Shown: positions 12,391-37,373 of the stretch, piece after piece
How the letters are laid out: each line of letters starts with the position of its first letter
Position numbering within the stretch: position 1 is the first letter of the stretch
DNA from: Methanobacteriota archaeon
Lineage (GTDB): Archaea > Thermoplasmatota > Thermoplasmata > UBA10834
NCBI GenBank assembly: GCA_020725925.1
Contig: DYTN01000004.1
Coordinates: forward strand, 2,802-66,801
Direction: 5' to 3'
Length of the DNA stretch: 64,000 bases
Notes under the pieces: model-generated
Databases searched by the model: none
What the model was told of the DNA's origin: nothing
What the model saw: the letters and a program-made list of their open reading frames with translations, nothing else
Position numbers and translations under genes: made by a program

Positions 12391-12396
12391 CGATCA

Positions 12397-18870: not shown

Positions 18871-18982
18871 TGCAGGTGCCGGGATTCGAACCCGGGCCGT
18901 TGGCTTTCGTCCCTCTCCATTTTATCTTCTTTCAACGGAGCGGCTGGAAGGCCAAGATCCTAACCAGCTAGATTACACCTGC
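18871..18982 (-). tRNA. tRNA-Gly (anticodon UCC) with an intron of about 40 nt (roughly 18905-18944) adjacent to the anticodon loop; no encoded CCA
   Basis: The reverse-complement strand folds. Acceptor GCAGGTG/CACCTGC. D-arm ATCT-AGCTGGTTA-GGAT. Anticodon stem TTGGC/GCCAA with loop CTTCCA(G) and anticodon TCC. T-arm CCGGG-TTCGAAT-CCCGG. Discriminator A. Confidence 0.75.
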
Positions 18983-20219: not shown

Positions 20220-20551
20220 GTGGTCTCCGCGGCCGCCAAGGGTCGTCCTTCTTCAAGTGATAGGGTCATGACAAGCATGGGGCTCTGGACGACCTGAAGC
20301 CCAGGACTCACGAAACCAGCAAGAGAGAAGTGACCAGATGGGGGCAGGCCGACATCGAACTGACACATACTGACTAGATTTCAATCGGGCGGAATTGAAT
20401 TTCGGGAGAACGCACCAAACCTCTTTCTTTTTCTATGGATTTTCGTGATGATGATTCATTAGGGGTTCGAACACCATTGCATGCAAATCGTGTGCTCTTT
20501 CATGAACCATATCCGAAGTCAGTTCGTGTCGAGATTTCTGTCTTCGACTCT

Positions 20552-23664: not shown

Positions 23665-24966
23665 TTACTGTGGGGCTGGATTGCCCACAATTGATGCCTC
23701 GATTTGGCGAATCATTTCATCGCGAGATTGAATTTGATCCTTCAGGCACTTGCACAAGGCCTCTCGAGTAATCTCCTCCATGGCCGACGTTTGAGCCATA
23801 AGCTTGCTCTGGTCAAGATTTCTGGCGCCATGCAAGAGAAGTCCTCGTGCACGGTAAGCCTCCTTGACGGTGGCACGAATCTTCTTTCTTTCGACCGGTT
23901 CGGTCCCCAGGAAGTGAGCGATTCTCAGGCTGAGTCTATATGCGAACTCTCCGAATTCGACATCCTCTCCGAACAGCGATTCACAGGCAATCCAGTAATC
24001 AACCAAGGCTTCGTCCGGCCGTGGCCTGTCCACTGCATCACAGAATCTCTGAAGAGCCACCTTCCAGAAGGGAGGCTGTTTTTCTGCAATCTGTTCTACT
24101 AGCTTCCAGTAATGCCTAAGTCTAGGCAGACTCTGACTTTGGAGTGTGTAAGGTCTGCCAACTATTCTCCGTCGTGGGTAGGCAGTGCCTACGCGAACCG
24201 ACATGCCAGTCCAGCTCAGTGGTCGGCACCAGATAGTATCAAACCCTACTGACCCCGTCTCAGTCAACTTCATGATAGCTACGAACCACCAAAAGCAGTC
24301 TTGGTGCGTCTGTGTGAGTGCTGGGAAACCCCGCTTGACGACTGCTGTCATTTCAAGCACGAATCTCAGATGCCCGAATGGGAAGATTCTCGCTAGCGAA
24401 TCAGAGTCTGCTGCGATGCCATTGTACACAGCAAACTCATCAGCGTTCAACTTGCGAATGTTGAAAGGACCGACACGCTCCATGTCTGCTTCCATGGCGA
24501 AGTTGGCAAGCGGAGCTGAGAGGAGGTACTCGTCTTCCTCGCTGTTTAGGTAGTCTTCGAATGACTTGTAGTTCGATTCAAACTCTGCTTCCTTGAACTC
24601 GACGCCATCTTGCATGATTAGCTGGCGCGTAATCATTGGCTGGAGAATGTTGTATGCAAATGCCATGGGAACTACAGACGCTCCTTTGTCTTTGAGCAGA
24701 CTTGCTATGCTGCCGTGCCGAAGGAGGCCATTGGTCAAGGCTTCATTGGTCTTGTCATTGACGAAATCCAACGCAGTCGTTGCAGCAAGCAGTCGAAAGT
24801 CAGGCTTCGATTCTGACCCTACTGAAAAGGAACCATCCTTGCCAAACTCCACCTTGGGAACAAGCCTCTGTGGGAGTCCTCCTCTTCGGAGCACCGAGTC
24901 CCTAAGGACGCTCATGTAGCGAACAGTGAGGTCCTTGAGGGCGTTATACAAGATCTGATCTCGCAT
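23665..24966 (-). CDS. HEPN-domain abortive-infection-like protein (Abi/Apea-like)
   Basis: The C-terminal region YRLSLRIAHFLG ... KEAYRARGLLLHGARN contains the canonical HEPN Rx4-6H motif. Size is 433 aa. It lies in the low-GC island. Confidence 0.5.
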   Translation of the reverse strand: MRDQILYNALKDLTVRYMSVLRDSVLRRGGLPQRLVPKVEFGKDGSFSVGSESKPDFRLLAATTALDFVNDKTNEALTNGLLRHGSIASLLKDKGASVVPMAFAYNILQPMITRQLIMQDGVEFKEAEFESNYKSFEDYLNSEEDEYLLSAPLANFAMEADMERVGPFNIRKLNADEFAVYNGIAADSDSLARIFPFGHLRFVLEMTAVVKRGFPALTQTHQDCFWWFVAIMKLTETGSVGFDTIWCRPLSWTGMSVRVGTAYPRRRIVGRPYTLQSQSLPRLRHYWKLVEQIAEKQPPFWKVALQRFCDAVDRPRPDEALVDYWIACESLFGEDVEFGEFAYRLSLRIAHFLGTEPVERKKIRATVKEAYRARGLLLHGARNLDQSKLMAQTSAMEEITREALCKCLKDQIQSRDEMIRQIEASIVGNPAPQ

Positions 24967-25369
24967 GCAGAGGGTACACTGACCTCGAGCTTGATGAGGA
25001 AATCGGTTGCTGTGACGCCCTTCCTTCTCTAGAGGCTTTTCCGATTGCTCAAGGCTACTTGTTGAGTATCATGCTCCTCTCAGAACCACCCGAAGGAAAG
25101 TTTCTGTCTTGTTGATGTTTCCTTTCCCAAGGATGTTATGATGAAGTGGTCCCCTGTCAGATGGAGACTTCAGCATAGACGCTTTGCTAGGGCCGACTTC
25201 CTCGTATCCTTTTAACTTCGGTTAAATGATCAATAGAACGAAGACCGAAGAGGAACATGGGAATCTGACGAGCATGCGAAGGAGGAATTCCCGATTGTTA
25301 AGAATGCCGGACATCCGGTGAAGCATTGATGGTGCAAGTGTTTTCAATTTGCCGACAAACGGGCCTCGA

Positions 25370-25580
25370 TGTCTATGGAAAACATCGAGAACTCATGAGA
25401 ATGGGAAAAGACAACGGAAGAAGAGTCGAGACGGCACGAGCCTTTTTCATACGAGAAAATCCTCATGTTTTTCCATGGTTTTCCATAATTCTCAATGACT
25501 CTCATAGCTCATCTGAGATTCGCTGGCAAGAGCCTCAAATGAGGGTCTTTTCTCAATGATCTTTCCATTGATTCTCATGC
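25370..25580. repeat. Non-coding repeat locus A: a cluster of short motifs (CATGAGAA, ATTCTCAATGA, TTCCATGG), homologous in inverted orientation to locus B at 41640-41960
   Basis: Locus A 25477-25510 is GGTTTTCCATAATTCTCAATGACTCTCATAG. The reverse complement of locus B 41847-41884 is GGTTTTCCATAtgggatAATTCTCGTGACTTTTCCATAG. Locus A 25541-25575 (reverse complement CATGAGAATCAATGGAAAGATCATTGAGAAA) aligns with locus B 41735-41765 (CATGAGAACCATTGAGAATCTATGGAGAAAT). Confidence 0.6.
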
Positions 25581-25915
25581 GCTTATCAGATTACCTGGCA
25601 AGAAGCGTATGCGAGAGATTTTCTTCGGAGTGAGCGATTGCTCTTGTGTGAAGCACGTGCCGAGGCATCTCCTCCTCATGAAACCGTTCGGCGGTGAAGA
25701 ACCGACTTGACTCTTCAGTCCGATCGGTTGGAATTGAAATCGTGCTTTGGTTATCTGGCTAAGGGCTTGATCGGGCCCAGTTTGACTCACCGAGGTCCAT
25801 ACTGAGGGAGAAGCGGCGAAAAGTTGTATTCCCGAGAAGATCTGCGATCGGCATTCAGCCAGTATTTCGAGTTCAACCACTGTCCCTCGCCACTTGGCTC
25901 CAGTAGGATCAAGCA

Positions 25916-26950
25916 ATGTATGTCTGGCTAGAGCGGTTTCGTGTCTCGCCGCCGACTCCGAGACCAACGGCATACGTTTCATATCGAATGATTTACAATA
26001 CCCATCAGCTCGGTATGCCGAACATTCGCAAATCTGTATTCGGCTCAAGGTCGGAAAGGAATCTGTACGCTACTCTTACTTCTAGATGGTCCAACCGTTT
26101 CAACGTTTACCCGAACCTTCCTTTCCTCAATATCATCGAAGTCAAGAAGAACGAACTGCCCGTCTTCGACTTTGAGGTTTTGAAGAAATCGAGCGTTGAT
26201 TACACACTCTGCACCAAGGATGACGCACCCGTTCTATCAATCGAATTCGATGGACTCGGCTACGGCTTCTCCCGAGATGGGAAGTACGTTCCCGTCGTCT
26301 ATGACATTCCCGACCCATACAGGCAGGAAAAGATGAATCGAAAATTGAGGGCCGCCGACAAAGCGAATTACCCTCTCGTAATACTGTCCTATTTCGAGAA
26401 GGAACCGATCGGCAAAGATCTTCAGATAACCTTGGTTGACGGAATCATCGGACAGATCCTTTCGAGACGACGGTTTGATGAACTGATGAATGAACGTCTC
26501 AAGGAGGAACCCGACATTCTGTCAAGACTATCCAAACGGGAGATGGATGACCTGATTGATGGCATCGAGATAGAGGCAGATTTCGAGGAGAATCCTCTTT
26601 CGCGGAAGGCGGCAATCGCTGAGGTGGAAGCTGTGAAGCGAGGCCTCTTGAAACGATGGTCATTCCATTATTTTGAGGAGCCTACTGCACCTGACCTCCT
26701 TTCCTGGCCGCCTGATCCTGAATCTCTTTCACGGAGAATTGATGCACTCAGGAACGCCGAATGGATTGGTGCTCGTATTGTTTCTGACACCCCTTCTGGG
26801 ATAGTATTGGAAACCGCAGCGAAAATCCGGAGCATCTCGGGCCATGGAGTCTCTCCCTTGATTCTCGTTGAGGATATCGTCAGACTTCTGCATGCAACGA
26901 AACTGCTGGACGACCACACTGAAGAGATCCCTAACAGAACCTCAACCTGA
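25916..26950 (+). CDS. DUF2726/NERD-like PD-(D/E)xK-type nuclease-related protein
   Basis: VDYTLCTKDDAPVLSIEFDGLGYGF fits the DUF2726 core (DF-hl...p-l-IE-DG), recalled from memory. 344 aa, low GC, next to the methyltransferase. Confidence 0.35.
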   Translation: MYVWLERFRVSPPTPRPTAYVSYRMIYNTHQLGMPNIRKSVFGSRSERNLYATLTSRWSNRFNVYPNLPFLNIIEVKKNELPVFDFEVLKKSSVDYTLCTKDDAPVLSIEFDGLGYGFSRDGKYVPVVYDIPDPYRQEKMNRKLRAADKANYPLVILSYFEKEPIGKDLQITLVDGIIGQILSRRRFDELMNERLKEEPDILSRLSKREMDDLIDGIEIEADFEENPLSRKAAIAEVEAVKRGLLKRWSFHYFEEPTAPDLLSWPPDPESLSRRIDALRNAEWIGARIVSDTPSGIVLETAAKIRSISGHGVSPLILVEDIVRLLHATKLLDDHTEEIPNRTST

Positions 26951-27027
26951 GAGGTCTCCTATGCCATCGCCGCGTCCAGTATGATTGGCCCGGTGACGGT
27001 CATCTGACGACGCGCTCTCGTTCTCAC

Positions 27028-28563
27028 TTATGAAGAGTGCTCAGATAGCCTCGACTGTTTCTCCCTCTTCGCCAGCGGCTGTTTCTTCGCCTTTGGAGCT
27101 TGTGTGAATGTGGGATTGGTCTCCCTTGATGATACTGAATCAGGGCACTCAACCTTCTTGCCCTTCAATAGGTCTTCTATCGTAAGTAGCTGGATTCTCG
27201 GGTACTTCGGATTCCCAAGTTCTTTTGAAGTATAGAATCCCGCATCGGCGGCTTCAGAACGCATCTGTGGGGTGGGCTCGTTCAGACTGATCAACACGCC
27301 AATTGCAGCCTTCTCACGATCCACGACTCCATGTAGGTCTCTGACGTGGGCTGATGTTACATTGCCGGCCTTCACCGAGAATATGATTTGCTCCGACTTG
27401 GACCTCTCCACGAAGAAGTATAGGCGGCCGTCGATTCCCTTGTCAGCGCCCTTCTTCTGCTCGACGGGTCTAGCGCCTACTAGTCCGAGAGCCCACCATT
27501 GGAATTGGTATGGGTCTTGCTGGGCCAGTGCCTGCGCATCAGGTAGCGATACTGGTTCCCCAATCACCGTGTAGGATACCGTCTCTCCAAAAGCATCCTT
27601 GAGGCGATGTCTCATGAGTGTGATCGCAAGATGGGTGATATCAATTCCAATCCACTGTCTCCTCAGACGCTGGGCAACAGCAATTGTGGTCCCACAACCG
27701 CAGAACGGATCAAGCACCAAATCGCCCTCATTGCTACTCGTCGAGATAATCCGCTCAAGTAGACTTTCGGGCTTCTGAGTGGGATACCCAAGCCTCTCCT
27801 TCTTTGAGCCTGCAATGATTGATAATTCCCACACATCTCTCCGAGGCATGCCCCGAGTCTCCGCCTCCAACGTTATCTTCCTTGTTCCAGTCTCTGGGTC
27901 CAGCATCTGTGTCTTACCCTTGAACCTCTTCCAGTAGCTCTCGCTGACTGGTTCGTAGTCGACATTAAAGGTAATCGTTTGATTCGGGTCTCTCACATAG
28001 AAGAGAATCACGTCGTGCATGCGCTGATACATCTTCGAAGGCGTCGGCCACCTCCGATAGCTCCAGATGATTTCATTCTTGAAACAAGCTGGACTAAAGA
28101 CGGCATCCATAAGAATCTTGAGATGATGGCTTGCCGTTGGATCGCAATGCAGGTATATCGTCCCAGCTTGCTTGAGGACTCTCTTCATCTCGATTAGTCG
28201 GGGCGCCATCATTGATAGATAGGCGAGCATGTCGTTTGACCTGAGGATTCTTCTAAAAGCCTCCATTGTGTCTGCAAGCCTGCCGCCAAATGTGAGTGCA
28301 TCTTCGAATGCTTTGGCAGCTGCTTGGTCCCAATGCCAGGTGTCCTCAAAGGCCATGATTTGGGCTGCGGAACTGCTTCCATTGTGTTCCTTGAAAAGTA
28401 CGTTGTAATCTTGACCACTCTGAAAAGGTGGGTCAAGATAGATCAGATCAACGGTCTCGTCCTTGATGTACCGCTTGAGAATGTCGAGGTTGTCTCCGTA
28501 ATAGAGCATGTTTTCGGCTTTCCCTTCTGGCGTGTCCATCGTGTGGGAAATGGCTATTTGCAT
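27028..28563 (-). CDS. Beta-class N6-adenine/N4-cytosine DNA methyltransferase fused to a C-terminal Mrr-like restriction-endonuclease domain
   Basis: Motif IV DPPF (IYLDPPFQSGQDYN) precedes motif I (VLDPFCGCGTTIAVAQRL), which is the beta-class order. The C-terminal 150 aa carry KGADKGIDGRLYFF ... IIFSVKAGN, resembling the Mrr catalytic core (GIDG ... QxK-like). Confidence 0.7.
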   Translation of the reverse strand: MQIAISHTMDTPEGKAENMLYYGDNLDILKRYIKDETVDLIYLDPPFQSGQDYNVLFKEHNGSSSAAQIMAFEDTWHWDQAAAKAFEDALTFGGRLADTMEAFRRILRSNDMLAYLSMMAPRLIEMKRVLKQAGTIYLHCDPTASHHLKILMDAVFSPACFKNEIIWSYRRWPTPSKMYQRMHDVILFYVRDPNQTITFNVDYEPVSESYWKRFKGKTQMLDPETGTRKITLEAETRGMPRRDVWELSIIAGSKKERLGYPTQKPESLLERIISTSSNEGDLVLDPFCGCGTTIAVAQRLRRQWIGIDITHLAITLMRHRLKDAFGETVSYTVIGEPVSLPDAQALAQQDPYQFQWWALGLVGARPVEQKKGADKGIDGRLYFFVERSKSEQIIFSVKAGNVTSAHVRDLHGVVDREKAAIGVLISLNEPTPQMRSEAADAGFYTSKELGNPKYPRIQLLTIEDLLKGKKVECPDSVSSRETNPTFTQAPKAKKQPLAKREKQSRLSEHSS

Positions 28564-28788
28564 ATTAAGACAAGTGCTACCCGGAGGCTACACCGAAGGG
28601 CCATTGAGTCAATTCGCCCCAGCCCTTCTCGATCGGCAAATTCAAACCCGTTGCTTTGGCAGGCGTTCCTCTGAGTGTCATATGGTTTCTCAGTAAGTTG
28701 TACTGTATGACGAATCCGTCCAAAGCGTTCCCCGCACCGATTCTGCTTCCAAATCTTCTTACCTCCTTGAAGGAAAAGACTACTTAGG

Positions 28789-29019
28789 TTGACCTCACTA
28801 CCAGATTGGACGCTTGATATGGCAATAGTAAAGAGCCTGGGTATCACCGGTGGCGTTGTACTCGCAGTCTTCATTGCGGCGTATTTGTTTCTGCAGGCAG
28901 GGCAGTTCTTCAAAGAACTGAAGAAGGTTGGCTACGATCTTCTTGCCTTCGCTATTGTTATCGTTATTGTTGTCATAGCCGTGGTCCTGGCCATCGAATG
29001 GATGAAACACAGAAGCTGA
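28789..29019 (+). CDS. Small membrane protein with two predicted TM helices (76 aa)
   Basis: Hydrophobic stretches GGVVLAVFIAAYLFL and LLAFAIVIVIVVIAVVLAI. Confidence 0.3.
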   Translation: MTSLPDWTLDMAIVKSLGITGGVVLAVFIAAYLFLQAGQFFKELKKVGYDLLAFAIVIVIVVIAVVLAIEWMKHRS

Positions 29020-29105
29020 GTCAGGGCGGGTCGAATGCCCACCAAGGAGTCCTCCTTACTCAGCACAAGGTCCATATGGAAGAATAGAAGATACGGTAGA
29101 GCTTT

Positions 29106-29522
29106 ATGCAACTATCGCGTTATCGCACTATCGCAGGCAATTGGGAGAGGAGCGAGATGGCAAAAGCAACAATGACGATGCCCTCTGGAACAACGGTTGT
29201 GATCGAAGGCTCAGAGGGGGAAATCGAAACTATACTCCGACGAATCGATAAGGCACCTGAGAAGAGTCGCGCTCGGACAACCGAGCGATCGAAAGGCCGC
29301 AAAGGAGAGTCCGAGAAAGCTCTCGGGGACTACGTCTTGGAGCTGCGAGAGGCCGGCCTCTTCGAGAAGCCGCAAGGACTCGCCGACATCAAGAACGCTC
29401 TTCAGGCCGAAGGGCATATTGTCCCCATCACTACATTGTCAGGGGTCATGCTCAGAAGGGTCAAGAACCGCGAGCTGCGTCGATTCAAAGAAGAGAAGAC
29501 TTGGAAGTATGTCAAACGATAG
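29106..29522 (+). CDS. Small basic protein (138 aa), paralog of the next gene; probable winged-helix-like domain
   Basis: Shares the pattern LRxxGxFxxPxxxxxxxxLxxExHxxPxxxxxxxxxRxxxRxLRR with the 29562 ORF. Confidence 0.4.
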   Translation: MQLSRYRTIAGNWERSEMAKATMTMPSGTTVVIEGSEGEIETILRRIDKAPEKSRARTTERSKGRKGESEKALGDYVLELREAGLFEKPQGLADIKNALQAEGHIVPITTLSGVMLRRVKNRELRRFKEEKTWKYVKR

Positions 29523-29561
29523 AAAACGTATATCTGCACACCTAGTCTGGAGATGTGATTC

Positions 29562-29900
29562 ATGAAAGCCAAGATTGAAGTTGTTGACGGCAACGGCAGA
29601 GTCTTTGTTGGCATGACCGAACTTGTTGAGTCTACGCAGAAGCGTCGCAAACCATCGACGGGAGTGCCAACCGAAATCCGAAAAGAATTTTCACTGCCTG
29701 ACAGAATTGTTCAACTGAGGGACCAAGGTTTCTTTTCAACACCGAAGACGAGTCCAGAGGTTCATAAGGAATTAGCCAAGGAATATCACTGCGAGCCAGA
29801 TCGTGTAACCATGGCCCTAGGGCGTCTTCAGACAAGGAACCAACTTCGCAAAGCATCAGCAACGTTCGAGGACAAGAAAGTCAATGCTTACACATGGTGA
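29562..29900 (+). CDS. Small basic protein (112 aa), paralog of the previous gene
   Basis: Collinear similarity to the 29106 ORF (RIVQLRDQGFFSTPKTSPEVHKELAKEYHCEPDRVTMALGRLQTRNQLRK). Confidence 0.4.
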   Translation: MKAKIEVVDGNGRVFVGMTELVESTQKRRKPSTGVPTEIRKEFSLPDRIVQLRDQGFFSTPKTSPEVHKELAKEYHCEPDRVTMALGRLQTRNQLRKASATFEDKKVNAYTW

Positions 29901-29933
29901 AGGGTGTAGACGCACATACTACGAGAGGATTCC

Positions 29934-30737
29934 ATGGAAATAACCAAACAAGCAAGAATCGAAATGGAATCAAAGAAACTCGCAATGAAGATTCGGAATG
30001 TGAAGAGCGAACTTCCTGATATTCACTCGCTTCAGAGCCCGCTACACAAGTCACTGTGGGCACTCGCGGCAGCTAAGGAGGCAGGGGAGGACAGACCTCT
30101 GACATCGCAGAGAATGAGGATTCTTCTCGAGGTGTTCGATGTGGCAATCACGGACAGTCAGATCACAAACGCCCTGTCCAGATCCGGGGACAAGATCATC
30201 AGGAAGAATCGCGATGGAGTGCGAGGATACAAGATTGCCTTCACCGGTAAGACAGCTCTCATGAATACCGCTGGTGGGGAAGGTATCGAGGTGATATATG
30301 CAGAACCCGGCAACCGATGGAAGGCGCGAAGGCAATTGAGTGAACTTGCTGGCTCATTGAAGGGAGACCTTCTAGCTGTCGACAAGTATTATGGAGAGAG
30401 GACCCTGTACACACTCGAAACTCTAGCTAATCGCAAAGAGAATGTGCGATTCATTACATCCCATACAAGAGAGAATGCGCAGAAGCTCTCTGCGCTCTTT
30501 GGAGACCTCATGAATGCCAAGCCGAACTTGGAGGTTAGATTGTATTCCGGGAAGCATGACCTGCATGATAGGTACATCCTGTCAGACGATGCTCTTGTAC
30601 TGGTTGGTCACGGCCTCAAGGATTTGGGAGCGAGCGAGTCGTTCGTTGTTCGACTTGACACCAGGGTTGTCGGTGAACTCATGTCGCTTGTACGATGTAG
30701 TTTTGAAGATCGTTGGAGCAAATCGACTCCCATTTAG
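29934..30737 (+). CDS. Hypothetical 267-aa protein with an N-terminal wHTH-like region and a possibly divergent PLD-like (HxK to HxR) C-terminal motif
   Basis: C-terminal SGKHDLHDRYILSDDALVLVGHGLKD loosely resembles the HxKx4Dx6GSxN phospholipase-D/nuclease motif, with Arg in place of Lys and GHG in place of GSxN. The N-terminal region resembles the two small upstream proteins. Confidence 0.35.
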   Translation: MEITKQARIEMESKKLAMKIRNVKSELPDIHSLQSPLHKSLWALAAAKEAGEDRPLTSQRMRILLEVFDVAITDSQITNALSRSGDKIIRKNRDGVRGYKIAFTGKTALMNTAGGEGIEVIYAEPGNRWKARRQLSELAGSLKGDLLAVDKYYGERTLYTLETLANRKENVRFITSHTRENAQKLSALFGDLMNAKPNLEVRLYSGKHDLHDRYILSDDALVLVGHGLKDLGASESFVVRLDTRVVGELMSLVRCSFEDRWSKSTPI

Positions 30738-30845
30738 ACACATGGAAGAAGGAGAGATGTTCGTGCCGGCTGACCCCTTGAACAAAAAAAAAGAAGTTTA
30801 GCTCGGTGCTAAGATCGCGAAATTGAAATTTAGCCAATATCGAAA

Positions 30846-30866
30846 GTTCAAATCCGGCTCACTGCA
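30846..30866 (+). other. tRNA 3'-end-like fragment (GTTCAAATCCGGC TCACTGCA); possible att-site remnant at the right island boundary
   Basis: A 13-nt identity to the T-arm of tRNA-Pro (GTTCAAATCCGGC) is followed by an acceptor-3'-like tail. No upstream tRNA body is present, because the preceding CGAAAG cannot form a T-stem. Confidence 0.35.
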
Positions 30867-31264
30867 AGAAAATGACACGGAAAGGAATTGTTCCCTTCGA
30901 CTTCTTCGTATTCTAGTTATGGTGCGGTCGACCAATCCGCTTTCGATTGCAGCGGCAATCTTCCTGCGGCGCATGAATCTAGGGGTTGGTCGATTATCTC
31001 GTGTCCTAGACCTCTGCAACGATTCTAGCGCGCTAATCGGGGCCTCCCTCAGCCTTCGAACAGATCAAGCCAGTGTCTCAAGAAATGAGGGAAAAACTGC
31101 AATTTACATGAACGGTCAAAGGGGCTTATGTCCTTCACCTGGCACATTCTTGACATACTGGCTTCGTACCTCCCATAAAGGTTAATATGGGACGGCATCG
31201 TTGGTGGCGCTCACGAACAGAGCAAGGTTCCAGATCGACATTCTTATCAGAGCCAGGGGGAAGC

Positions 31265-32293
31265 ATGCTGAAGAGCGGTTTCGTGCCGAGGATTCTGTCC
31301 TGGAACACCACTAACAGATGTAATCTCAAATGCGCTCACTGCTACATGGATGCGAAGGACAGAGCGAGCACTAACGAGCTCACGACTGATGAGGGCAGGA
31401 AGCTCATAGACGAGATTTCTGAGGTTTCCAAGTGCGTCCTCGTTCTCAGCGGCGGGGAGCCGATGCTGAGAGCAGACATCTACGAACTGGCTGCTCACGC
31501 GAGATCCAAAGGACTCCGGGTCGTCATGGGCACGAATGGTACCTTGATTTCAAGAGAGGCTGCGAGGAATCTAGTCTCGGCAGGAGTATCCAGAGTCGCC
31601 ATATCCCTGGACGGGTGCGATGCGGCAATGCACGACTCGGTCAGGAGGGTTGAGGGTGCGTTCGAGGCCGCAATTGCGGGTGCGGAGGCCTGCAGGACCG
31701 CAGGTCTCGAGTTCCAGGTGAACTCGACGGTTTTCCCCCACAGCTTCAGTAGGATTCCTGACACTATCAGGACCGCGAAGAGAATCGGTGCGGCGGAGTT
31801 CCACCTGTTCTTTCTCGTCCCCACTGGTAGAGGTGTGTCCTTGAAGGACGTCGGCCCTTGGGACTACGAGAACATGCTACACCAGCTCTTGCCTCTTGAG
31901 AAGGAGGTCGGAATCCACATAAAGCCGACCTGCGCTCCGATGTACATGCGGGTATCCAAGCAGAGAGGAGGGAACGCCACAGAGAGATACTCACGGGGCT
32001 GTCTGGCCGGGATTTCGTACTGCAGGATAAGTCCGGAGGGAGGGGTTTACCCGTGCCCGTACCTGCCACTGGAGGTCGGCAGCGTTCGATCCCACAGCTT
32101 CGGAGAGATCTGGTTCAACGCACCCTTGTTCGCCGACCTGAGGAACTTCTCAAAGCTCAAGGGGAAGTGCAGAGTGTGCGAATTCAACGATATCTGCGGT
32201 GGCTGTAGGGCGCGGGCGTACGCGCTCGCTGGCGACGTTCTCGCTCCTGATCCGTGGTGCGTTCATGTGCCCAAGAGGAATCGAAATGGTTAG
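31265..32293 (+). CDS. Radical-SAM/SPASM enzyme of the AhbC/AhbD (NirJ-like) family: Fe-coproporphyrin III synthase or heme synthase
   Basis: CNLKCAHCY (CxxxCxxC) radical-SAM cluster motif and a C-terminal Cys-rich SPASM region (CRVCEFNDICGGCRARA), in an ahb/hem cluster. The start is more likely the MLKSGF methionine than the ORF-track start at 31187. Confidence 0.7.
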   Translation: MLKSGFVPRILSWNTTNRCNLKCAHCYMDAKDRASTNELTTDEGRKLIDEISEVSKCVLVLSGGEPMLRADIYELAAHARSKGLRVVMGTNGTLISREAARNLVSAGVSRVAISLDGCDAAMHDSVRRVEGAFEAAIAGAEACRTAGLEFQVNSTVFPHSFSRIPDTIRTAKRIGAAEFHLFFLVPTGRGVSLKDVGPWDYENMLHQLLPLEKEVGIHIKPTCAPMYMRVSKQRGGNATERYSRGCLAGISYCRISPEGGVYPCPYLPLEVGSVRSHSFGEIWFNAPLFADLRNFSKLKGKCRVCEFNDICGGCRARAYALAGDVLAPDPWCVHVPKRNRNG

Positions 32294-32780
32294 AGGACAT
32301 CCCGACTATCTTGACAAGAAGCTGGTCGCTGAACTCCAGCTGAGGTTTCCCCTGACAGAGAGGCCGTTCGAGGAAGTGGGGAGGCGACTTGGACTTTCGG
32401 AGGCGGAAGTGCTGAGCCGAACCCGGGAAATGATCCGCGAGGGAATCGTCCGGAGAATCGGATACATGGCGGGGAAGAGTCTTCAGAAGATGAAATCGAG
32501 CACACTCGTCGGAATGAAAGTCGAGACGGACAGAGCTGACTGGGCAGCGTCGGTCATCAGCAACTACAGAGAAGTCACCCACAACTATCTCCGAGACAAC
32601 GAACTCAATCTTTGGTTCACGGTGAGCGCATCCGACCGAGGACGTCTCGAGGACGTGGTTCGGGAAATTGTGACGAAAGTGCGGCCGCTCGACTGGATCG
32701 AGCTGCCATCCGTGAAGTCCTTCAAGCTTCTCACACCATCTGTCGGCATTTCCGAACAGGGGGTATCTTCACTTGGCTGA
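32286..32780 (+). CDS. Siroheme decarboxylase subunit (AhbA/AhbB, NirDL-like Lrp/AsnC fold)
   Basis: LDKKLVAELQLRFPLTERPFEEVGRRLGLSEAEVLSRTREMIREGIVRRIGY matches the NirD/L/G/H pattern. The ATG overlaps the upstream stop codon. Confidence 0.65.
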   Translation: MVRGHPDYLDKKLVAELQLRFPLTERPFEEVGRRLGLSEAEVLSRTREMIREGIVRRIGYMAGKSLQKMKSSTLVGMKVETDRADWAASVISNYREVTHNYLRDNELNLWFTVSASDRGRLEDVVREIVTKVRPLDWIELPSVKSFKLLTPSVGISEQGVSSLG

Positions 32781-33228
32781 CCTCACGATTCTAAGGGCAG
32801 TGGAAGACGGCATCGAGATGGTACCGAGGCCCTTCGAGGCAGCTGCGAAAAGGGCCGGCACTGACGAGGAGTCTGTGGTTCGCGAATTGAAAACTGTGCT
32901 CGAAAATGGCACGATACGCTTCTTCGGGGCGATCGTGGACCACAGAACTCTCGGGAAGCTCGTCAATGCGATGGTCGCGTGGGATGTGGAGGACAGCGCG
33001 GTAGATTCAGTCGGCAGGTCGTTCGCCGCAATCCCGATGGTCAGCCACTGTTACGAGAGGACGAGGGTTCCTGGCAAGTGGAAATACAACCTGTTCACAA
33101 TGGCTCACGCTGGGAACGAAGATGAACTCGAAGCGTTTCTCAAGGAGGGGCGTCGCCTGACGACAGGCGCAGACTGCATCGTGCTCAGGACCCTGAAAGA
33201 ATACAAGAAGACGGGGGTGAAGTTCTGA
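32773..33228 (+). CDS. Siroheme decarboxylase subunit (AhbA/AhbB), second paralog
   Basis: Same family (LTILRAVEDGIEMVPRPFEAAAKRAGTDEESVVRELKTVLENGTIRFFGA). Tandem with the previous gene. Confidence 0.65.
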   Translation: MADLTILRAVEDGIEMVPRPFEAAAKRAGTDEESVVRELKTVLENGTIRFFGAIVDHRTLGKLVNAMVAWDVEDSAVDSVGRSFAAIPMVSHCYERTRVPGKWKYNLFTMAHAGNEDELEAFLKEGRRLTTGADCIVLRTLKEYKKTGVKF

Positions 33229-33248
33229 AGTCGTCACTTGTCCCTCTG

Positions 33249-33863
33249 ATGATAGATTTCAATGGGAGGTTGGTGATCATCATCGGAGGAGGGCAGGTTG
33301 GTCTCAGGAAGGCGAGTGTCTTCTGTCGCGCAGGAGCTGATGTGCGCGTGATCAGCAAGGATTTCGCGAAGGGATTCAAGAGACTCCCCGCGAAGCTTGT
33401 GAAGGTCAGGAACTTCGAAGACCTGGGGTTGCTGAAGCATGCGTTCCTCGTGGTTGCAGCCACGAACGACCATGACCTGAACTCGCAAATCAAGCGCTCG
33501 TGCCGAGAGGCGGGAGTGATGTGCAACTCAGTGGACGACGAGGATTCAGATGTGTACCTTCCCTCAATCATCGCGCGAGGTCCCCTGACCATCTGCATAA
33601 GCACCCGTGGTGCGAGCCCAGCCCTTTCAAAGAGAGCCCGAATCATGATAGAGGAATTCATAGGGCCTGAATGGGGAAAGATGGCCGTCCTGTTGGCCGA
33701 GGCTAGAGTGATGCTCAAAAGCTCAATTGCCGCTCAGTCGTCGAGGAAGGAGGTCCTGAGTGGGATCCTCAATGACAAGGCAATATGGTCACAGCTGAGG
33801 AAAGGAGACATCGCAGGGGCGCGACGAACGATAACCAAGAGGCATCTGGAGGGAGGCAAGTGA
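33249..33863 (+). CDS. Precorrin-2 dehydrogenase / sirohydrochlorin ferrochelatase (SirC/CysG N-terminal domain-like)
   Basis: NAD-binding motif LVIIIGGGQVGLRKASVFCRAGADVRVI. At 204 aa the size is typical for SirC. Confidence 0.65.
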   Translation: MIDFNGRLVIIIGGGQVGLRKASVFCRAGADVRVISKDFAKGFKRLPAKLVKVRNFEDLGLLKHAFLVVAATNDHDLNSQIKRSCREAGVMCNSVDDEDSDVYLPSIIARGPLTICISTRGASPALSKRARIMIEEFIGPEWGKMAVLLAEARVMLKSSIAAQSSRKEVLSGILNDKAIWSQLRKGDIAGARRTITKRHLEGGK

Positions 33864-35119
33864 TTGGAGTCATAAGCGCTCACATAACGCACAGATGGGT
33901 CGACATCAAGAAGCTCGAGTTGTACGCAGCGAAGGAGGCAAGATCCCTACTCTCGTCAATAAAGGACCTCGATTCGGTGTGCGAGTGTGCTCTGCTCAAG
34001 ACGTGCAACAGGGTGGAGATATATGTTGCGACCACAAACCCCGAAAGGACCAAAGCTGCACTCGAAGCAATGATTCTCAATTTCGTCGAGGGTTCTGAGA
34101 GAAACCATGTTCAGTTCCTCTCCTCGACGGGCTCTGTCAGGCACCTCGCAAGGGTCACCAGCGGGCTCGACAGCATGATCGTGGGCGAGGACCAGATTCT
34201 TGCACAGGTGAAAGAGGCCTACGAGTTCGGGATCAAGGAGGGCACGATCGGTAAGACATTGGGGGAGGTTTTCCGAAAGGCGATCAGCATCGGGAAGAAG
34301 GTCAGAACAGAGACTGGTGTGAACAAGGGTGGCGTGTCGATCGGGTCTGCAGCTGTCGAACTGGCCAATGGGCTGCTCTCGTCGCTCCAGAACCGTACCA
34401 TACTCGTTGTCGGTGCGGGAGAAGTCTCCAGACTAGTGGCCAGGTCCCTCGCAAGTCACAATGTCAAGGCAATTTTCGTGGCCAACAGAACCTACGACGC
34501 CGCCGAGCAACTAGCCGCTGAACTCGGTGGAGAAGCAGTCCACTTCGACAGGCTCCCTGAGCGCCTTAGGATGAGCGACGTCGTGATCTGTGGAACCTCT
34601 GCGCCACATGTTGTCATTGACAAATCGGATCTAGTTCGTGCATTCGGCCCCGCTGGTCCAGCAACCCCTCTCCTGATGATCGACATAAGCAACCCCAGGA
34701 ACATCAGCGAGGATGTCCTTGAGCTGCCGAACGTCCAGCTTCACGACATGGACGGCCTCAAAGAGGTTGCGGAGAGGAATGAGGAACGAAGGAAGAATGA
34801 AATCGAGAGGGCCGAAAAGACGATTGACTCGGAACTCGAGCTGATGAAGTCCAGGTTCGAGGAAAGGAGAGACTCCGAGGAGACAGTCCGACTCCTCCAC
34901 ACATATGTGGGCCGGATAAGGGAATCCGAGTATGCAAAAGCAGTGAATAAGCTCAACGGTGTCGACGAGCGCCAGAAGAAGGTGATGTACGATATGCTGA
35001 TGTCCGTCACGAAAAAGATCCTCGCCGAACCCACGGAGAGCCTCAAGGAAGCCTCCAAGAACGGAGAGCAGGAACTCATCGATGCAACGGAGAAGCTCTT
35101 CAAGCTCAGGAGGAGATGA
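33860..35119 (+). CDS. hemA: Glutamyl-tRNA reductase
   Basis: Catalytic Cys motif LLKTCNRVEIY, NADPH-binding LVVGAGEVSRLVARSL, and a C-terminal dimerisation helix. A GTG start at 33860 overlaps the sirC stop codon (the ORF track is open from 33785). Confidence 0.8.
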   Translation: MIGVISAHITHRWVDIKKLELYAAKEARSLLSSIKDLDSVCECALLKTCNRVEIYVATTNPERTKAALEAMILNFVEGSERNHVQFLSSTGSVRHLARVTSGLDSMIVGEDQILAQVKEAYEFGIKEGTIGKTLGEVFRKAISIGKKVRTETGVNKGGVSIGSAAVELANGLLSSLQNRTILVVGAGEVSRLVARSLASHNVKAIFVANRTYDAAEQLAAELGGEAVHFDRLPERLRMSDVVICGTSAPHVVIDKSDLVRAFGPAGPATPLLMIDISNPRNISEDVLELPNVQLHDMDGLKEVAERNEERRKNEIERAEKTIDSELELMKSRFEERRDSEETVRLLHTYVGRIRESEYAKAVNKLNGVDERQKKVMYDMLMSVTKKILAEPTESLKEASKNGEQELIDATEKLFKLRRR

Positions 35120-35120
35120 A

Positions 35121-36101
35121 GTGTTCCCAAAGACAAGGCTCAGAAGGACCCGCAGCACACCCGAGCTCAGAGCGCTGGTGCGGGAAACCGAGGTCTTCCC
35201 AGGAGATCTTGTCTATCCGATGTTTGTGGACGAGACAATCTCGATCCCGAGACCTATACCTTCGATGCCCGGGATATTCTCATATCCGCTCAGGAGATTC
35301 GTTGCAGAGGCGGAGCGGGCGGAATCGCTCGGCGTGCCCGCAGTGATGATCTTCGGCGTCCCGAAGAAGAAGGATCCCCTCGGAAGACAGGCGTATGCTC
35401 GCGAAGGCATAGTCCAGAGATCCCTCAGGAAACTCGACGAGCGCACAAACCTGATACTCATAGCCGATCTGTGCCTCTGCGAGTATACCAGTCACGGTCA
35501 CTGCGGTGTGGTGATCGATGGACGAGTGCATAATGACAAGACGCTTGACCTGTATGGCAGGACGGCGGTCTCCCAGGCAGAGGCAGGAGCTGATGTAATT
35601 GCTCCCAGCGGCATGATGGACGGGATGGTGTCCGCCATCAGAGCCGCTTTGGACGATGCCGGTTTTGAGCAGACACCAATCATGTCATACAGCGCGAAAT
35701 TTGCATCCTCGTTCTACGGGCCTTTCAGGGACGCAGCCTCTTCGGCACCAGCCTTCGGTGACCGGCGCTCCCACCAGATGGACGGCTGCAATCTCCGCGA
35801 GGCCATCAGGGAGATCGAGCTGGACATTGCTGAGGGGGCGGACATAGTCATGGTCAAGCCCGCTCTGCCGTACTTGGACGTGATCAGAGAGGCGAGGAGG
35901 TCCTTCACGGTGCCTCTCGCCGCATACTGCGTGAGCGGAGAGTACGCGATGCTGAAGGCTGCCGCGTCTAGTGGTTATCTCGACTACGACGCTGTTCTGA
36001 AGGAGACCTTGTTGTCCATCAGACGGGCAGGGGCGGACATCATAGTCACGTACTCTGCCCTGGACTTCGCTGAGAAGAAGCATAAGGAAGAAAGAGGGTG
36101 A
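35121..36101 (+). CDS. hemB: Porphobilinogen synthase (delta-aminolevulinic acid dehydratase)
   Basis: A family-typical N-terminus RLRRTRSTPELRALVRETEV, the active-site motif VKPALPYLD, and a metal-binding Cys cluster CLCEYTSHGHCG. A GTG start follows the hemA stop codon. Confidence 0.8.
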   Translation: MFPKTRLRRTRSTPELRALVRETEVFPGDLVYPMFVDETISIPRPIPSMPGIFSYPLRRFVAEAERAESLGVPAVMIFGVPKKKDPLGRQAYAREGIVQRSLRKLDERTNLILIADLCLCEYTSHGHCGVVIDGRVHNDKTLDLYGRTAVSQAEAGADVIAPSGMMDGMVSAIRAALDDAGFEQTPIMSYSAKFASSFYGPFRDAASSAPAFGDRRSHQMDGCNLREAIREIELDIAEGADIVMVKPALPYLDVIREARRSFTVPLAAYCVSGEYAMLKAAASSGYLDYDAVLKETLLSIRRAGADIIVTYSALDFAEKKHKEERG

Positions 36102-36104
36102 GCG

Positions 36105-37373
36105 ATGTCGAAATCCGAGAAGCTCTACGAGAAGGCTAAGGAACTGATGCCTGCGGGGGTCTCGAGCCCGGTGCGAGCATTCGAGCCCTATCCGAGATAC
36201 ATAGAGTCGGCAAAGGGCTCAAGGATGAGGGATGTTGACGGGAAGGAATACGTTGACTATTGCATGGCATTCGGGCCGCTCATACTTGGTCACTCCCCAC
36301 CGAACGTCGTGACGGTAGTGAAGAAGATGCTCGAAAAAGGGAGTGTGTTCGGCGCGCCAACAGAGCAAGAGATCGTGCTCGCCGAGAAGATACGCAGTCA
36401 TTACCCAGCAGCAGAGATGCTGAGGCTCGTGAACACAGGAACCGAAGCCACCATGCATGCGCTCAGGTTGGCCAGGGGTTTCACGGGGAGAAAGAAGGTC
36501 GTGAAGGTCGAGGGGGCGTACCACGGAGCCCACGATGCCATGCTGGTCAAGGCAGGCTCGGGAGCGTTGACGCACAGCGCGCCCAATTCCCTCGGCGTGC
36601 TTGAAGACGTCGCGAAGCATACCATGCTTGTGCCATACAACAACTCAAGGGCTCTGCGAAATGCGCTGAAAGGCGAACATGGTGACGTCGCAGCGATGAT
36701 CATCGAGCCCGTGCTAGGCAATGTCGGTCCAATCCTGCCCGAGGAGGGGTACCTACAAGAAGTCAGGGAGATCACCTTGGACGAGGATGTTCTCCTGATT
36801 CTCGACGAGGTGATCACGGGCTTCAGGCTGGGCCTCGGAGGCGCACAGGAGATGTTCGGCATCAAGCCCGATCTGCTCACTCTGGGCAAGATTGTTGGAG
36901 GAGGATTCCCAATAGGCGTGTTTGGCGGGCGGAGGGAAATAATGGAGAAGATCTCGCCTCTGGGGGGAGTGTATCAGGCAGGCACGTTCAGCGGCAACCC
37001 GATCAGCGTCTCGGCCGGTCTCGAGACCATACGCACAATGGAAAAGAAAGGATACGCCTCTCTCGAGAGACGGTCGAGGAATCTTCGAGAGGGCTTGGAG
37101 GACGTGCTAGAGCGCTCCTCGCTGGGATATCAGGTTTCGGGCATAGGCTCTATGTTCCAGATATTCTTCACAAACGCAAAGATGCGGAACTGGGACGATA
37201 TACGGACTTCGGACACGGCGAGATTCATGCAGATGTTCCGGCGTCTCTTGGATGAAGGAGTCTATGTGCCGCCGAGCCAGTTCGAGACCAATTTCCTCTC
37301 GACTGCGCACAGTGATGCCGATGTCGAATTCACCATCGCGGCCTATGAAGGGGCCATCAGAGGACTCTCATGA
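36105..37373 (+). CDS. hemL: Glutamate-1-semialdehyde 2,1-aminomutase
   Basis: 422-aa class-III aminotransferase, with GAYHGAHDAMLVKAGSG and LILDEVITGFR around the PLP lysine, in hem context. Confidence 0.85.
   Translation: MSKSEKLYEKAKELMPAGVSSPVRAFEPYPRYIESAKGSRMRDVDGKEYVDYCMAFGPLILGHSPPNVVTVVKKMLEKGSVFGAPTEQEIVLAEKIRSHYPAAEMLRLVNTGTEATMHALRLARGFTGRKKVVKVEGAYHGAHDAMLVKAGSGALTHSAPNSLGVLEDVAKHTMLVPYNNSRALRNALKGEHGDVAAMIIEPVLGNVGPILPEEGYLQEVREITLDEDVLLILDEVITGFRLGLGGAQEMFGIKPDLLTLGKIVGGGFPIGVFGGRREIMEKISPLGGVYQAGTFSGNPISVSAGLETIRTMEKKGYASLERRSRNLREGLEDVLERSSLGYQVSGIGSMFQIFFTNAKMRNWDDIRTSDTARFMQMFRRLLDEGVYVPPSQFETNFLSTAHSDADVEFTIAAYEGAIRGLS

Follow-up and report, generated by a model that had tools for sequence, protein, structure and literature searches.

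Two mutually inverted, homologous repeats of about 0.6 kb, here called arms A and B, bracket a 15.65-kb segment with a complete alternative heme-biosynthesis (ahb/hem) cluster in the window, the 64,000-nt stretch of DNA that was analysed, whose host is a Methanomassiliicoccales-like archaeon. Both arms lie within a low-GC integrative element of 27 kb (20378-47435) that carries its own tyrosine integrase and abuts a tRNA-Pro gene. Their position, their internal boxes and the point at which their homology stops suggest that the arms are recombinase-site-derived junction DNA of mobile elements, a reading to which we assign a probability of about 0.5.

Arm A (25209-25795, plus strand) occupies a divergent intergenic region between a HEPN-like gene (23665-24966, minus strand) and a DUF2726 gene (25916-26950, plus strand). 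Arm B (41446-42115, minus strand) is reverse-complementary to it and contains one extra internal module of about 81 nt (41665-41745). The arms, delimited by blastn and MAFFT, measure 0.58 kb (A) and 0.67 kb (B) and are 78-84% identical. When the two intergenic regions were compared by blastn, 25209-25577 matched 42115-41746 (83.6% over 371 nt, E=4e-110) and 25580-25782 matched 41664-41462 (77.7% over 206 nt, E=1e-40); the longest perfect run was 39 nt. Between the inner end of arm B and a truncated amidohydrolase fragment (41079-41438) there are 8-24 nt, and the outer ends of the homology fade rather than stopping sharply. The first-pass annotation had described two homologous loci in inverted orientation, which proved correct, the homology being much longer than first described. 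Its detailed pairings were off: 41847-41884, which it had set against 25477-25510, is colinear with approximately 25440-25478, and its match of 41735-41765 to 25541-25575 was shifted by about one 10-bp unit. Because the internal boxes repeat, several local alignments are possible, and the earlier pairings fall inside the homology, displaced by at least one repeat unit. The short words that had been noticed as dense in both loci (TATGGAAA, ATGGAAAA and ATTGAGAA) do occur 70-490 times as often in the arms as elsewhere in the window, and all three exact occurrences of CATTGAGAAT in the 64 kb fall in the arms. The description of the loci as AT-rich is accurate relative to the host (GC about 47% in the arms, 62% in host DNA) and not in absolute terms.

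Frame-by-frame comparison of the arms agreed with the earlier assignment of the loci as non-coding. Amino-acid identity was 51-75% in every frame, no better than nucleotide identity, ORF lengths were not conserved and arm A contained no conserved ORF, so protein-coding arms were rejected. A protein-level duplication extending past the arms was also rejected, and the genes at the outer ends (HEPN-like at A, GIY-YIG-like at B) are unrelated to each other. No integrase gene lies beside either arm. Searches of three public collections, of plasmids and phages and of 113 fetched loci revealed no copy of the entire 0.6-kb arm beyond the window. Exact 20-34-mers taken from its most conserved stretches had zero matches in genome_contigs, metagenome_contigs and viral_contigs, a blastn search of the plasmid and phage collections with the arm gave no match, and arm-like DNA was absent near relatives of the heme cluster (L081-L087), near HEPN-like homologues (L088-L090) and from 80 Methanomassiliicoccales and other archaeal loci.

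Each arm is a mosaic of a conserved block, a box dyad, degenerate modules and a terminal module, an architecture common to both, with two degenerate modules in A and three in B. At the outer edge of arm A, sequence reading and RNAalifold pair counts placed a hairpin, TTTAAC-TTCG-GTTAAA (25211-25226, plus strand), whose counterpart in arm B is TTTGAC-CGAA-GTCAAA (42098-42113), with one compensated base pair. Next comes the most conserved block, of about 100 nt and 90-95% identical (25231-25299, plus strand; approximately 42025-42093 in arm B), with perfect runs of 39 and 27 nt and an inverted GGGAAT box pair; a permutation test on the sliding identity between the arms gave P of about 0.003-0.008 for this block. 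A repeat search in both arms identified the dyad (25374-25487 in arm A), in which three boxes of about 10 bp, TATGGAAAAC / ATCGAGAAC / TCATGAGAAT (25374-25402), face inverted copies at 25459-25487. The boxes are of the ATTGAGAAT/ATGGAAAA type in both arms and surround a spacer fixed at 56 nt, which includes the GC-rich GAGTCGAGACGGCACGAG and in arm A holds a perfectly conserved 20-mer (25421-25440); the arm B dyad (41838-41865 / 41922-41949) has the same geometry and spacer. Direct-repeat families (D1-D3 in arm A, D1-D5 in arm B) and a line-up of the modules resolved the next stretch of arm A (25488-25603, plus strand) into two tandem degenerate modules of about 72 nt, each with ATTGAGAA-type boxes followed by a CTGGCAAG box. 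CTGGC boxes stand at 25523 and 25595 in these modules, and at 41650, 41729 and 41800 (minus strand) in the three modules of arm B (approximately 41640-41835).

The island that contains the arms can be recognised by comparison and by composition. In the closest genome (L001) only 3.1 kb separates two tRNA genes that in the window are separated by 28.4 kb of low-GC DNA. At the left border, 20378-20399, GC falls from 60% to 50%, and this border is itself an imperfect palindrome with two ATTGAA half-sites, the left att core ATTTCAATCGGGCGGAATTGAA. The 3' end of the tRNA-Pro gene is 23 nt away from the right att core, ATTTCAATCCGGCGAAATTGAA (47414-47435), which is contained in the final codons of the integrase gene and is followed by AATCAGCCAGAT, an AGCCAGAT box. 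The two cores are identical at 20 of 22 positions, a score that none of 2000 shuffles reached, and no other site in the window matches the right core as well as the left core does. Their 22-bp consensus, ATTTCAATCsGGCGrAATTGAA, is dyad-symmetric and bounds the island on both sides. The integrase gene (46521-47465, plus strand) encodes a XerA-like Phage_integrase protein (Pfam 1.5e-11; NCBIfam XerA_Arch 1.7e-10, a score below the cut-off) and sits at the right end of the island, abutting the integration target, a tRNA-Pro (CGG) gene found by ARAGORN and Rfam (47458-47531, minus strand). It is the island as a whole that is bounded by repeated cores beside an integrase and a tRNA gene. Close relatives of this integrase were absent from viral_contigs, and among its homologues one lies beside a tRNA gene (L097) and another beside an element of the repeat family described below (L100). 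An internal att site splitting the island had been considered, from an 18/20 direct repeat (30817-30836 / 47425-47444) and an apparent fragment of a tRNA 3' end (30846-30866). It was dropped because this stretch is part of a non-coding block of about 375 nt that is 80-85% conserved in L092, L105 and L108; the 18/20 repeat is a further instance of the box pair ATTGAAAT+AGCCA.

Boxes related to the att core are concentrated in the island. Boxes of the ATTGA[AG]A type are closely packed in the arms and hardly occur outside the island, and 17 of the 18 ATTGA[AG]A[AT][TC] boxes in the window fall between 20.3 and 47.5 kb. The arm boxes ATTGAGAAT and ATGGAAAA are similar and not identical to the att half-site ATTGAAAT, the commonest ones differing from it by an indel or a substitution. 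Related boxes were present at all three integrase-proximal junctions (in the window, L097 and L100), with which the terminal module of the arms has GAATTGAAATC and TCTGGCT in common. The arms do not have the direct-repeat arrangement of attL and attR: they are mutually inverted, and nhmmer found no co-oriented partner element for either. Judged by sequence similarity, ATTGAGAAT, ATTGAAATC and CTGGCAAG are candidate integrase-binding boxes; we know of no description of arm-type sites for archaeal integrases.

The terminal module connects the arms to a dispersed repeat family. In arm A it spans 65 nt (25731-25795, plus strand) and reads GAATTGAAATC-N12-TATCTGGCT...GGGCCCAG, a pattern also written GAATTGAAATC-N12-TATCTGGCT-...-GGGCCC, and it is homologous to the 3' module of the family. 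The arm B module (41446-41514, minus strand) was matched by the nhmmer family profile at E=1e-4 (model positions 230-298), and a full-length diverged member, copy C, lies between UbiA and the integrase module (45116-45291, plus strand; nhmmer E=8e-27), and its 30-nt box pair recurs after it in inverted form. The arms have only their terminal 62-65 nt in common with the family, and beyond the 3' boundary of the family arms A and B cease to be homologous. A search with the pattern common to both arms and copy C matched 23 metagenomic contigs against about one expected by our own rough estimate, and approximately 20 of these carry a 170-300-nt element, at least 95% identical, with a sharp 3' end. 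The hosts are uncultured Thermoplasmata contigs; L091-L113 come from sediment samples of the Ga0315xxx series. There are up to three copies per contig (up to three within 5 kb), always co-oriented, and partial copies correspond to different segments of the model. The DNA on either side of the terminal module differs from contig to contig: no fewer than 13 groups of upstream flanks and 9 of downstream flanks occur in reticulate combinations, which could be assembly chimeras at the repeat. Copies often lie 10-40 nt after the stop of a co-oriented gene. Neither the family copies nor copy C had an Rfam match at E<=1, and the predicted RNA fold of the element had no excess stability (z about 0). 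A search of the literature on heme and menaquinone synthesis in Methanomassiliicoccales, their mobile elements, and archaeal intergenic repeats and MITEs yielded nothing specific; the family has no Rfam counterpart and no published description that we could find.

Several contigs place the family near integrases or near the genes carried by the island. In L100, the stop of a Phage_integrase ORF (Pfam 1.2e-7; 34% identity to the window integrase) and the 3' end of a family element are 53 nt apart, and a second, inverted 30-nt box pair lies across a GGGCCCAACCGGGCC centre; this is the one contig of about 20 in which an integrase abuts the element, much as the integrase of the window adjoins tRNA-Pro. 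L097 has a module of tRNA, integrase, small ORF and wHTH genes that resembles 45406-47531 of the window, where the wHTH gene occupies 45406-45891, with AGCCAGTAT...TTCAATC boxes at the tRNA junction. L095 encodes a UbiA 89% identical to that of the window, with a family element nearby, and in L086 direct 50-nt repeats of the family 5' module flank a heme and UbiA cluster. The genes between metagenomic copies are housekeeping genes (TBP, GNAT, diphthamide synthase and ABC transporters), so that the family cannot simply consist of att scars. No kinship was detectable between the small GIY-YIG-like ORFs beside arm B and beside the family element of L111.

The segment between the arms (25796-41445) was characterised by Pfam scans and by colinearity with L081, L083 and L086. 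It begins with the DUF2726 gene, an MTase-Mrr fusion, a PLD-like gene and small ORFs, continues with the conserved non-coding block mentioned above (30800-31175) and the heme cluster (31187-40971; ahbC-ahbAB-sirC-hemA-hemB-hemL-hemC-cobA-hemD-ahbD), and includes the amidohydrolase fragment. The first-pass annotation had pointed out that recombination between the inverted loci would invert the heme genes. Mechanistically this is valid, given 0.6 kb of homology at 80-84% identity with a 39-nt run, and the arms could serve as a substrate for such an inversion. Gene order in relatives places an inversion breakpoint between ahbD and UbiA, the site of arm B, and the terminal module of arm B paired with copy C could equally explain the orientation of UbiA.

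These observations are best accommodated if the arms are recombination-site-derived DNA, either left over or accessory. Their boxes, which run in both orientations with a phasing of about 10 bp and are related to the half-site ATTGAAAT, may together with the CTGGC(A/T)A boxes be binding sites of this tyrosine-integrase family. The arms would then be accreted or duplicated att-type junctions, that is, the ends of earlier nested or tandem insertions, and the two to three degenerate modules of about 72 nt would be remnants of reiterated sites. The island probably brought them in from a Thermoplasmata donor of lower GC content. At present they encode nothing, and their role is probably structural, as inverted homology and possibly as secondary recombinase sites; a recombination event between the two would reverse the 15.65-kb stretch of heme and defence genes. 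Of the options raised in the first-pass annotation, ends of related mobile elements, or an array of protein-binding sites, come closest to this reading, since the arms lie in an integrase-bearing island, end at the family 3' boundary and contain boxes that resemble att half-sites. Counterweights exist: the arms are inverted, whereas the att junctions of one insertion are direct repeats, and only the last 65 nt of an arm have relatives elsewhere. A bolder version, in which the ATTGAAAT/CTGGCT modules would be working secondary sites for cassette-like capture, exchange and flipping of genes, and the arms an integrase-driven inversion switch for the 15.65-kb segment, is speculative and in our view improbable. 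If it were true, the modules moved would be the heme cluster here, heme and UbiA in L086, and TBP and defence genes elsewhere.

Alternatively, the arms might be a passive, dispersed, modular intergenic repeat of the BOX/REP or MITE kind, long composite variants of which were carried along with donor chromosomal DNA. They would then have no connection with the integrase, and their sole importance would be as homology on which rearrangements can act. The family and the arms do show the multi-copy, intergenic, mosaic and module-variable character of BOX/REP-like repeats: the family lies in many copies between housekeeping genes, the number of internal modules differs between the arms, and the UbiA gene and nearby family element of L095 show that the right part of the island is donor chromosomal DNA. 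Left unexplained by a passive repeat are the occurrence of the same boxes in the att core and at the three integrase-proximal junctions, and the fact that arm homology stops exactly at the recombination-prone 3' boundary of the family. The related suggestion of MITE-like elements stands insofar as a multi-copy family exists and fails insofar as only the terminal 65 nt of an arm belong to it, the whole arm having two known copies, both in the window. A repeat search found no terminal inverted repeats, each arm showing internal dyads and scattered short complementarities with differing centres, and no target-site duplication was visible at either arm, though at 17-20% divergence a short one could have decayed. 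We regard a passive repeat as unlikely. A transposon-like unit of 16.9 kb (25209-42115), with the arms as long terminal inverted repeats and the heme cluster as cargo, fits the inverted bracketing and recalls L086, where heme and UbiA genes are also bracketed by short repeats of the family. It is hardly credible, as the unit contains neither a transposase nor a casposase, the DNA between and next to the arms lacks Cas1 and PolB domains, the outer borders fade with no target duplication seen, each arm has its sharp end, defined by the family, on the inner side, the repeats in L086 are direct rather than inverted, and a divergence of 17% means that the arms are no recent pair of ends.

Structured non-coding RNA paralogues, or cis-regulatory leaders of the flanking HEPN-like and GIY-YIG-like nuclease genes, would be consistent with the position of both genes 243-293 nt beyond the same arm end and with the cUUCGg-type edge hairpin and its compensated pair. 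An RNA, or a single strand with structure, could also account for the 95%-conserved 100-nt block and the few compensated pairs, the sole substitution cluster in this block (GAG to AAT) is matched by a complementary change about 320 nt away, and folding z-scores were -2.4 to -4.1. However, compensated pairs were similar on the two strands (7 versus 6), as were the z-scores, which is what inverted DNA boxes alone yield. The arms had no match in Rfam 15 at E<=1 and no conserved TATA-like promoter on sequence reading, HEPN-like homologues elsewhere have short upstream regions with no arm-like sequence, and the family element, as noted, has no fold stability of its own; an RNA nature of the arms seems improbable. 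The proposal of iterons or an origin is not supported. The phased boxes of about 10 bp, in two opposed clusters of variable number, do resemble parC-type centromeres and iteron origins, and an origin or partition site of an integrated plasmid, present twice, could have this form. Scans with Pfam, PHROGs and NCBIfam detected no Rep, primase, MCM, Orc1/Cdc6, ParA or ParR-like gene in the island, and no rep, orc1/cdc6 or par gene lies near the loci. The dyad spacer is GC-rich, not an AT-rich unwinding element, plasmid and phage collections had no match, and the boxes match the att half-site instead. The consensus of origin recognition boxes is of the TTCCA-N-TGGAAA type, and no dyad of this type was present on sequence reading. 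We consider an origin or centromere very improbable. The origin, RNA and transposon explanations are each less supported than derivation from recombinase sites.

A complete heme-biosynthesis cluster is thus carried on a tRNA-Pro integrative island, bracketed by recombination-prone repeats, in Methanomassiliicoccales, which are generally regarded as lacking cytochromes. The family 3' module behaves like a hotspot of integration and rearrangement, and the 22-bp dyad core with ATTGAA half-sites is a candidate recognition sequence for one archaeal integrase family. If the integrase binds the boxes, these elements would help to explain the shuffling of metabolic and defence modules among these archaea; if it does not, the arms would be ordinary repeat-rich junction DNA. 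If there were a transcript of about 150 nt ending at GGGCCCAC, the family would be an sRNA gene that is targeted by integration.

Three kinds of known systems have features in common with the arms. Like invertible segments between inverted IS, rRNA or prophage copies, the inverted 0.6-kb arms surround a 15.65-kb segment with a breakpoint near arm B; unlike them, the arms are only 80-84% identical, with a longest run of 39 nt, and the segment is known here from one orientation. Bacterial BOX elements (boxA-boxB(n)-boxC), REP/BIME and Correia/ERIC-type MITEs resemble the arms in being non-coding, intergenic, mosaic and variable in module number, and resemble the family in being multi-copy, with conserved ends and rearrangements at the copies. 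The arms and family differ from them in being archaeal (Thermoplasmata), in having no terminal inverted repeats or target duplications, in the co-orientation of the copies, in the association with integrase junctions and in that only the terminal module of the arms is multi-copy. Tyrosine-integrase att regions are the third. A lambda-type attP consists of a core of two inverted half-sites around an overlap region, with clusters of accessory or arm-type sites. Unlike such regions, the arms lie in the interior of the island, extend over 0.6 kb and are mutually inverted, with no adjoining integrase and with binding sites that are putative. The likeness to lambda-type attP and to tRNA-targeting archaeal elements lies in the integrase of the island at a tRNA 3' end with a 22-bp dyad core at both borders, in the clustering within the arms of short boxes that run in both orientations and resemble the core half-site, and in the terminal module of the arms, which elsewhere is abutted by an integrase gene of the same family.

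The two arms of the inverted repeat, arm A at 25209-25795 (+) and arm B at 42115-41446 (-), bracket 15.65 kb of the window. Comparison of the two intergenic regions by blastn showed that arm A 25209-25577 was 83.6% identical to arm B 42115-41746 over 371 nt (E = 4e-110), and that arm A 25580-25782 was 77.7% identical to arm B 41664-41462 over 206 nt (E = 1e-40). A MAFFT alignment of the arms agreed with blastn, with about 81 additional nt in arm B relative to arm A. The first-pass annotation had paired inverted blocks of 30-40 nt near 25.5 and 41.8 kb. An inverted-repeat search, blastn and MAFFT all showed that the inverted homology is real and much longer than those blocks; the block pairings lie inside the true homology but are register-shifted matches between internal repeat units. 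In other words, the feature is real and bigger than first described. Both loci had also been described as dense in the same short words, and 8-mers such as TATGGAAA, ATGGAAAA and ATTGAGAA are indeed enriched 70-490 times in the arms, while all three exact occurrences of CATTGAGAAT in the window fall within them. The arms are non-coding DNA, since protein-level conservation did not exceed DNA-level conservation in any frame when arm A was compared with arm B.

Read in the orientation of arm A, the arms begin with an edge hairpin (TTTAAC-TTCG-GTTAAA in arm A, TTTGAC...GTCAAA in arm B) that contains a compensated pair between the arms. The conserved block at 25215-25314 reaches 90-95% identity and includes uninterrupted matches of 39 and 27 nt (permutation P about 0.003-0.008); it holds GGGAAT boxes as an inverted pair. 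A dyad has three boxes of about 10 bp on either side of a 56-nt spacer that includes a perfect 20-mer, its geometry and spacer length being common to both arms. Degenerate modules of about 72 nt, two in arm A and three in arm B, each consist of ATTGAGAA-type boxes and then a CTGGCAAG box. A right-hand block separates these from the terminal 65-nt module, GAATTGAAATC-N12-TATCTGGCT-...-GGGCCCAG.

Two tRNA genes detected by Rfam and missed by ARAGORN, at 4402-4503 (+) (102 nt) and 18871-18982 (-) (112 nt), presumably carry introns, and together with the archaeal mevalonate-pathway genes in the window they point to an archaeal host. The HMG-CoA synthase matched Methanomassiliicoccales/Thermoplasmata metagenome-assembled genomes, most closely L001 (83%), and the host is Methanomassiliicoccales-like; this order is usually regarded as cytochrome-free. 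GC content is 48-58% between about 20 and 47.5 kb and 60-64% on either side. L001, the closest genome, is syntenic on both flanks, but 28.4 kb of the window correspond to 3.1 kb there. The gene for a tyrosine integrase (46521-47465) runs into the 3' end of tRNA-Pro, and the borders are 22-bp imperfect palindromes, ATTTCAATCGGGCGGAATTGAA on the left (20378-20399) and ATTTCAATCCGGCGAAATTGAA on the right (47414-47435). These sites are identical at 20 of 22 positions, a score reached by none of 2000 shuffles, and nothing else in the window, apart from the right site itself, matches the right site as well as the left one does. The low-GC span, the gap in L001, the integrase and the repeated border sites together indicate that the arms lie inside a 27-kb integrative element.

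The cargo of this island includes a HEPN-like gene, a DUF2726 gene, a methyltransferase-Mrr fusion and a PLD-like gene. The HEPN-like reading of the 433-aa protein encoded at 23665-24966 (-), which has an R-x4-H motif and no Pfam match, comes from the sequence only; the protein has 16 homologues (39-73% identical), and all three fetched contexts resemble regions of defence genes, with type I R-M, SLFN/AlbA_2 and HNH-repeat proteins. No arms were found in these regions. The fusion of an N6/N4 DNA methylase to an Mrr-type restriction endonuclease domain (27028-28563, -), the adjoining DUF2726 gene and a nearby weak PLD-like ORF (29934-30737) resemble a small defence cluster lying between the arms. 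The remaining cargo includes a complete ahb/hem cluster, an amidohydrolase fragment, a GIY-YIG-like ORF, a menA-like UbiA prenyltransferase and a wHTH gene. The alternative heme pathway (ahbC, split ahbA/ahbB, sirC, hemA, hemB, hemL, hemC, cobA, hemD, ahbD) and the UbiA gene are absent from the same site in L001. Of the amidohydrolase gene, the window contains only an N-terminal Amidohydro_3 fragment (41079-41438; 119 aa, covering Pfam positions 2-51 of 472), which breaks off 8-24 nt short of arm B's inner end; its remainder was not found anywhere else in the window. Small GIY-YIG-like ORFs lie beside arm B (42408-42731, +) and beside a family element, described below, in the fetched locus L111 (8979-9476, -); the two proteins have no detectable relationship, and both Pfam matches are below the curated cut-off.

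A third match to the inner end of both arms, a weak one, was found at 45219-45281. A pattern derived from the three diverged copies, GARTTGAAATC-N5-T-N-G-NN-T-N-TCTGGCT, matched 23 metagenomic contigs, against our own chance expectation of about one, and about 20 of these share an element of 170-300 nt that is at least 95% identical. The element ends sharply at ...GGCCCGGTTGGGCCCAC, and its flanks vary on both sides. They fall into at least 13 groups upstream and at least 9 downstream, combined in a reticulate way, which reflects either recombination at the element or chimeric assembly at a repeat. Contigs carry multiple copies, always co-oriented, with housekeeping genes between them, and the best named relatives of an asparagine synthase encoded next to the family are labelled 'Thermoplasmata archaeon'. 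The family does not occur in 1.2 Mb of other Methanomassiliicoccales and archaeal loci or in the host portions of the window; it matches nothing in Rfam and shows no excess fold stability. Its profile identified a full copy at 45116-45291 (+; E = 8e-27), referred to as copy C, and the end of arm B (E = 1e-4). The arm profile matches the family solely over its last 62-65 nt, and the homology between the arms ends exactly at the family's 3' boundary.

In a subset of copies the 30-nt box pair recurs in inverted orientation about 40 nt past the GGGCCC hairpin, forming a long imperfect palindrome (window 45221-45250/45290-45319; L100 669-698/728-757), and the remaining copies end at GGGCCCAC. In another contig, L101 (about 1100-700, minus strand, some 450-900 nt past its family element on the downstream side), the full element is succeeded by a degenerate second copy and six tandem GGTGATGACAT(A/G)-type repeats of 11-12 nt before a small ORF; these repeats are an iteron-like array of a plasmid-like element that is probably integrated.

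ATTGAA-type and AGCCAG/CTGGCT boxes were present at each of the three junctions seen near an integrase. In L100, 53 nt separate the end of a Phage_integrase ORF (Pfam 1.2e-7; 34% identical to the window integrase) from the 3' end of a family element, and the junction is a long palindrome of two inverted 30-nt box pairs around GGGCCCAACCGGGCC. L097 contains a tRNA-integrase-small ORF-wHTH module resembling window 45406-47531, with AGCCAGTAT...TTCAATC boxes at the tRNA junction. In the window, the right att core is followed by AATCAGCCAGAT. The att core itself consists of two inverted ATTGAA half-sites, and 17 of the 18 ATTGA[AG]A[AT][TC] boxes in the window fall inside the island.

The heme cluster (31253-40955) is colinear with those of L081, L083 and L086 at 68-70% nucleotide identity, and no arm-like DNA was found in these three loci. 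In the relatives, UbiA borders the cluster and runs in the same direction, upstream in L081 and downstream in L086 and L087; the window's UbiA lies on the opposite strand, 2.75 kb past ahbD, with arm B between. This difference places an inversion breakpoint in the region of arm B. The other breakpoint could be arm A, with the heme segment flipped, or copy C, with the UbiA segment flipped. In L095, a UbiA 89% identical to that of the window has a family element nearby. In the metagenomic relative L086, whose AhbD is 77% identical, 50-nt direct repeats (98-147 and 12356-12405; 82%) corresponding to the family's 5' module flank the heme and UbiA cluster, followed 2-4 kb downstream by an integrase and a DDE transposase. 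The L095 gene and the L086 repeats indicate that the island cargo came from a repeat-bearing lineage, where repeats also mark module borders.

Directly upstream of ahbC, a stretch of about 375 nt (30800-31175) is 80-85% identical to stretches just past TBP in L092, L105 and L108, far better conserved than neighbouring genes (heme genes about 69%). Its translated matches lose frame and fall on both strands, so the stretch is apparently non-coding. Rfam gave no match to it; it includes a tRNA-T-arm-like GTTCAAATCCGGCTCACTGCA as well as a ATTGAAAT+AGCCA box pair, and may be an undescribed RNA gene.

Several explanations of the arms were weighed. A purely passive BOX/REP-like repeat is unlikely, though the most probable of the four alternatives. 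That the arms are an ncRNA or RNA leader is improbable. They do fold with z-scores of -2 to -4, but on both strands, and RNAalifold compensated pairs numbered 7 (+) vs 6 (-), so the signal is not strand-specific and is what inverted DNA boxes alone would give; the arms also had no Rfam match even at E ≤ 1. An iteron origin or centromere, with which the reiterated modules are compatible, is slightly more doubtful again. Transposon ends would be inverted as the arms are; this is the least probable of the four.

The best-supported explanation is that the arms are recombination-site-derived junction DNA. The arms would be clusters and reiterations of boxes that this integrase family uses, would end in the hotspot module of the dispersed family, and would have arrived together with the island. 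We infer that the integrase binds the boxes, that the arms originated by accretion, and that inversion actually occurs. The weaknesses of this explanation are that the full arm is unique so far, that its boxes are similar and not identical to the att half-site, that the arms are mutually inverted without partner junctions, and that the adjacency of family and integrase comes from one contig. Site-specific inversion or cassette exchange, if true, would raise the significance of the arms. As they stand, they belong with known kinds of sequence, the site clusters of integrative elements and dispersed repeats of modular build, here in an archaeal lineage that has been little studied.
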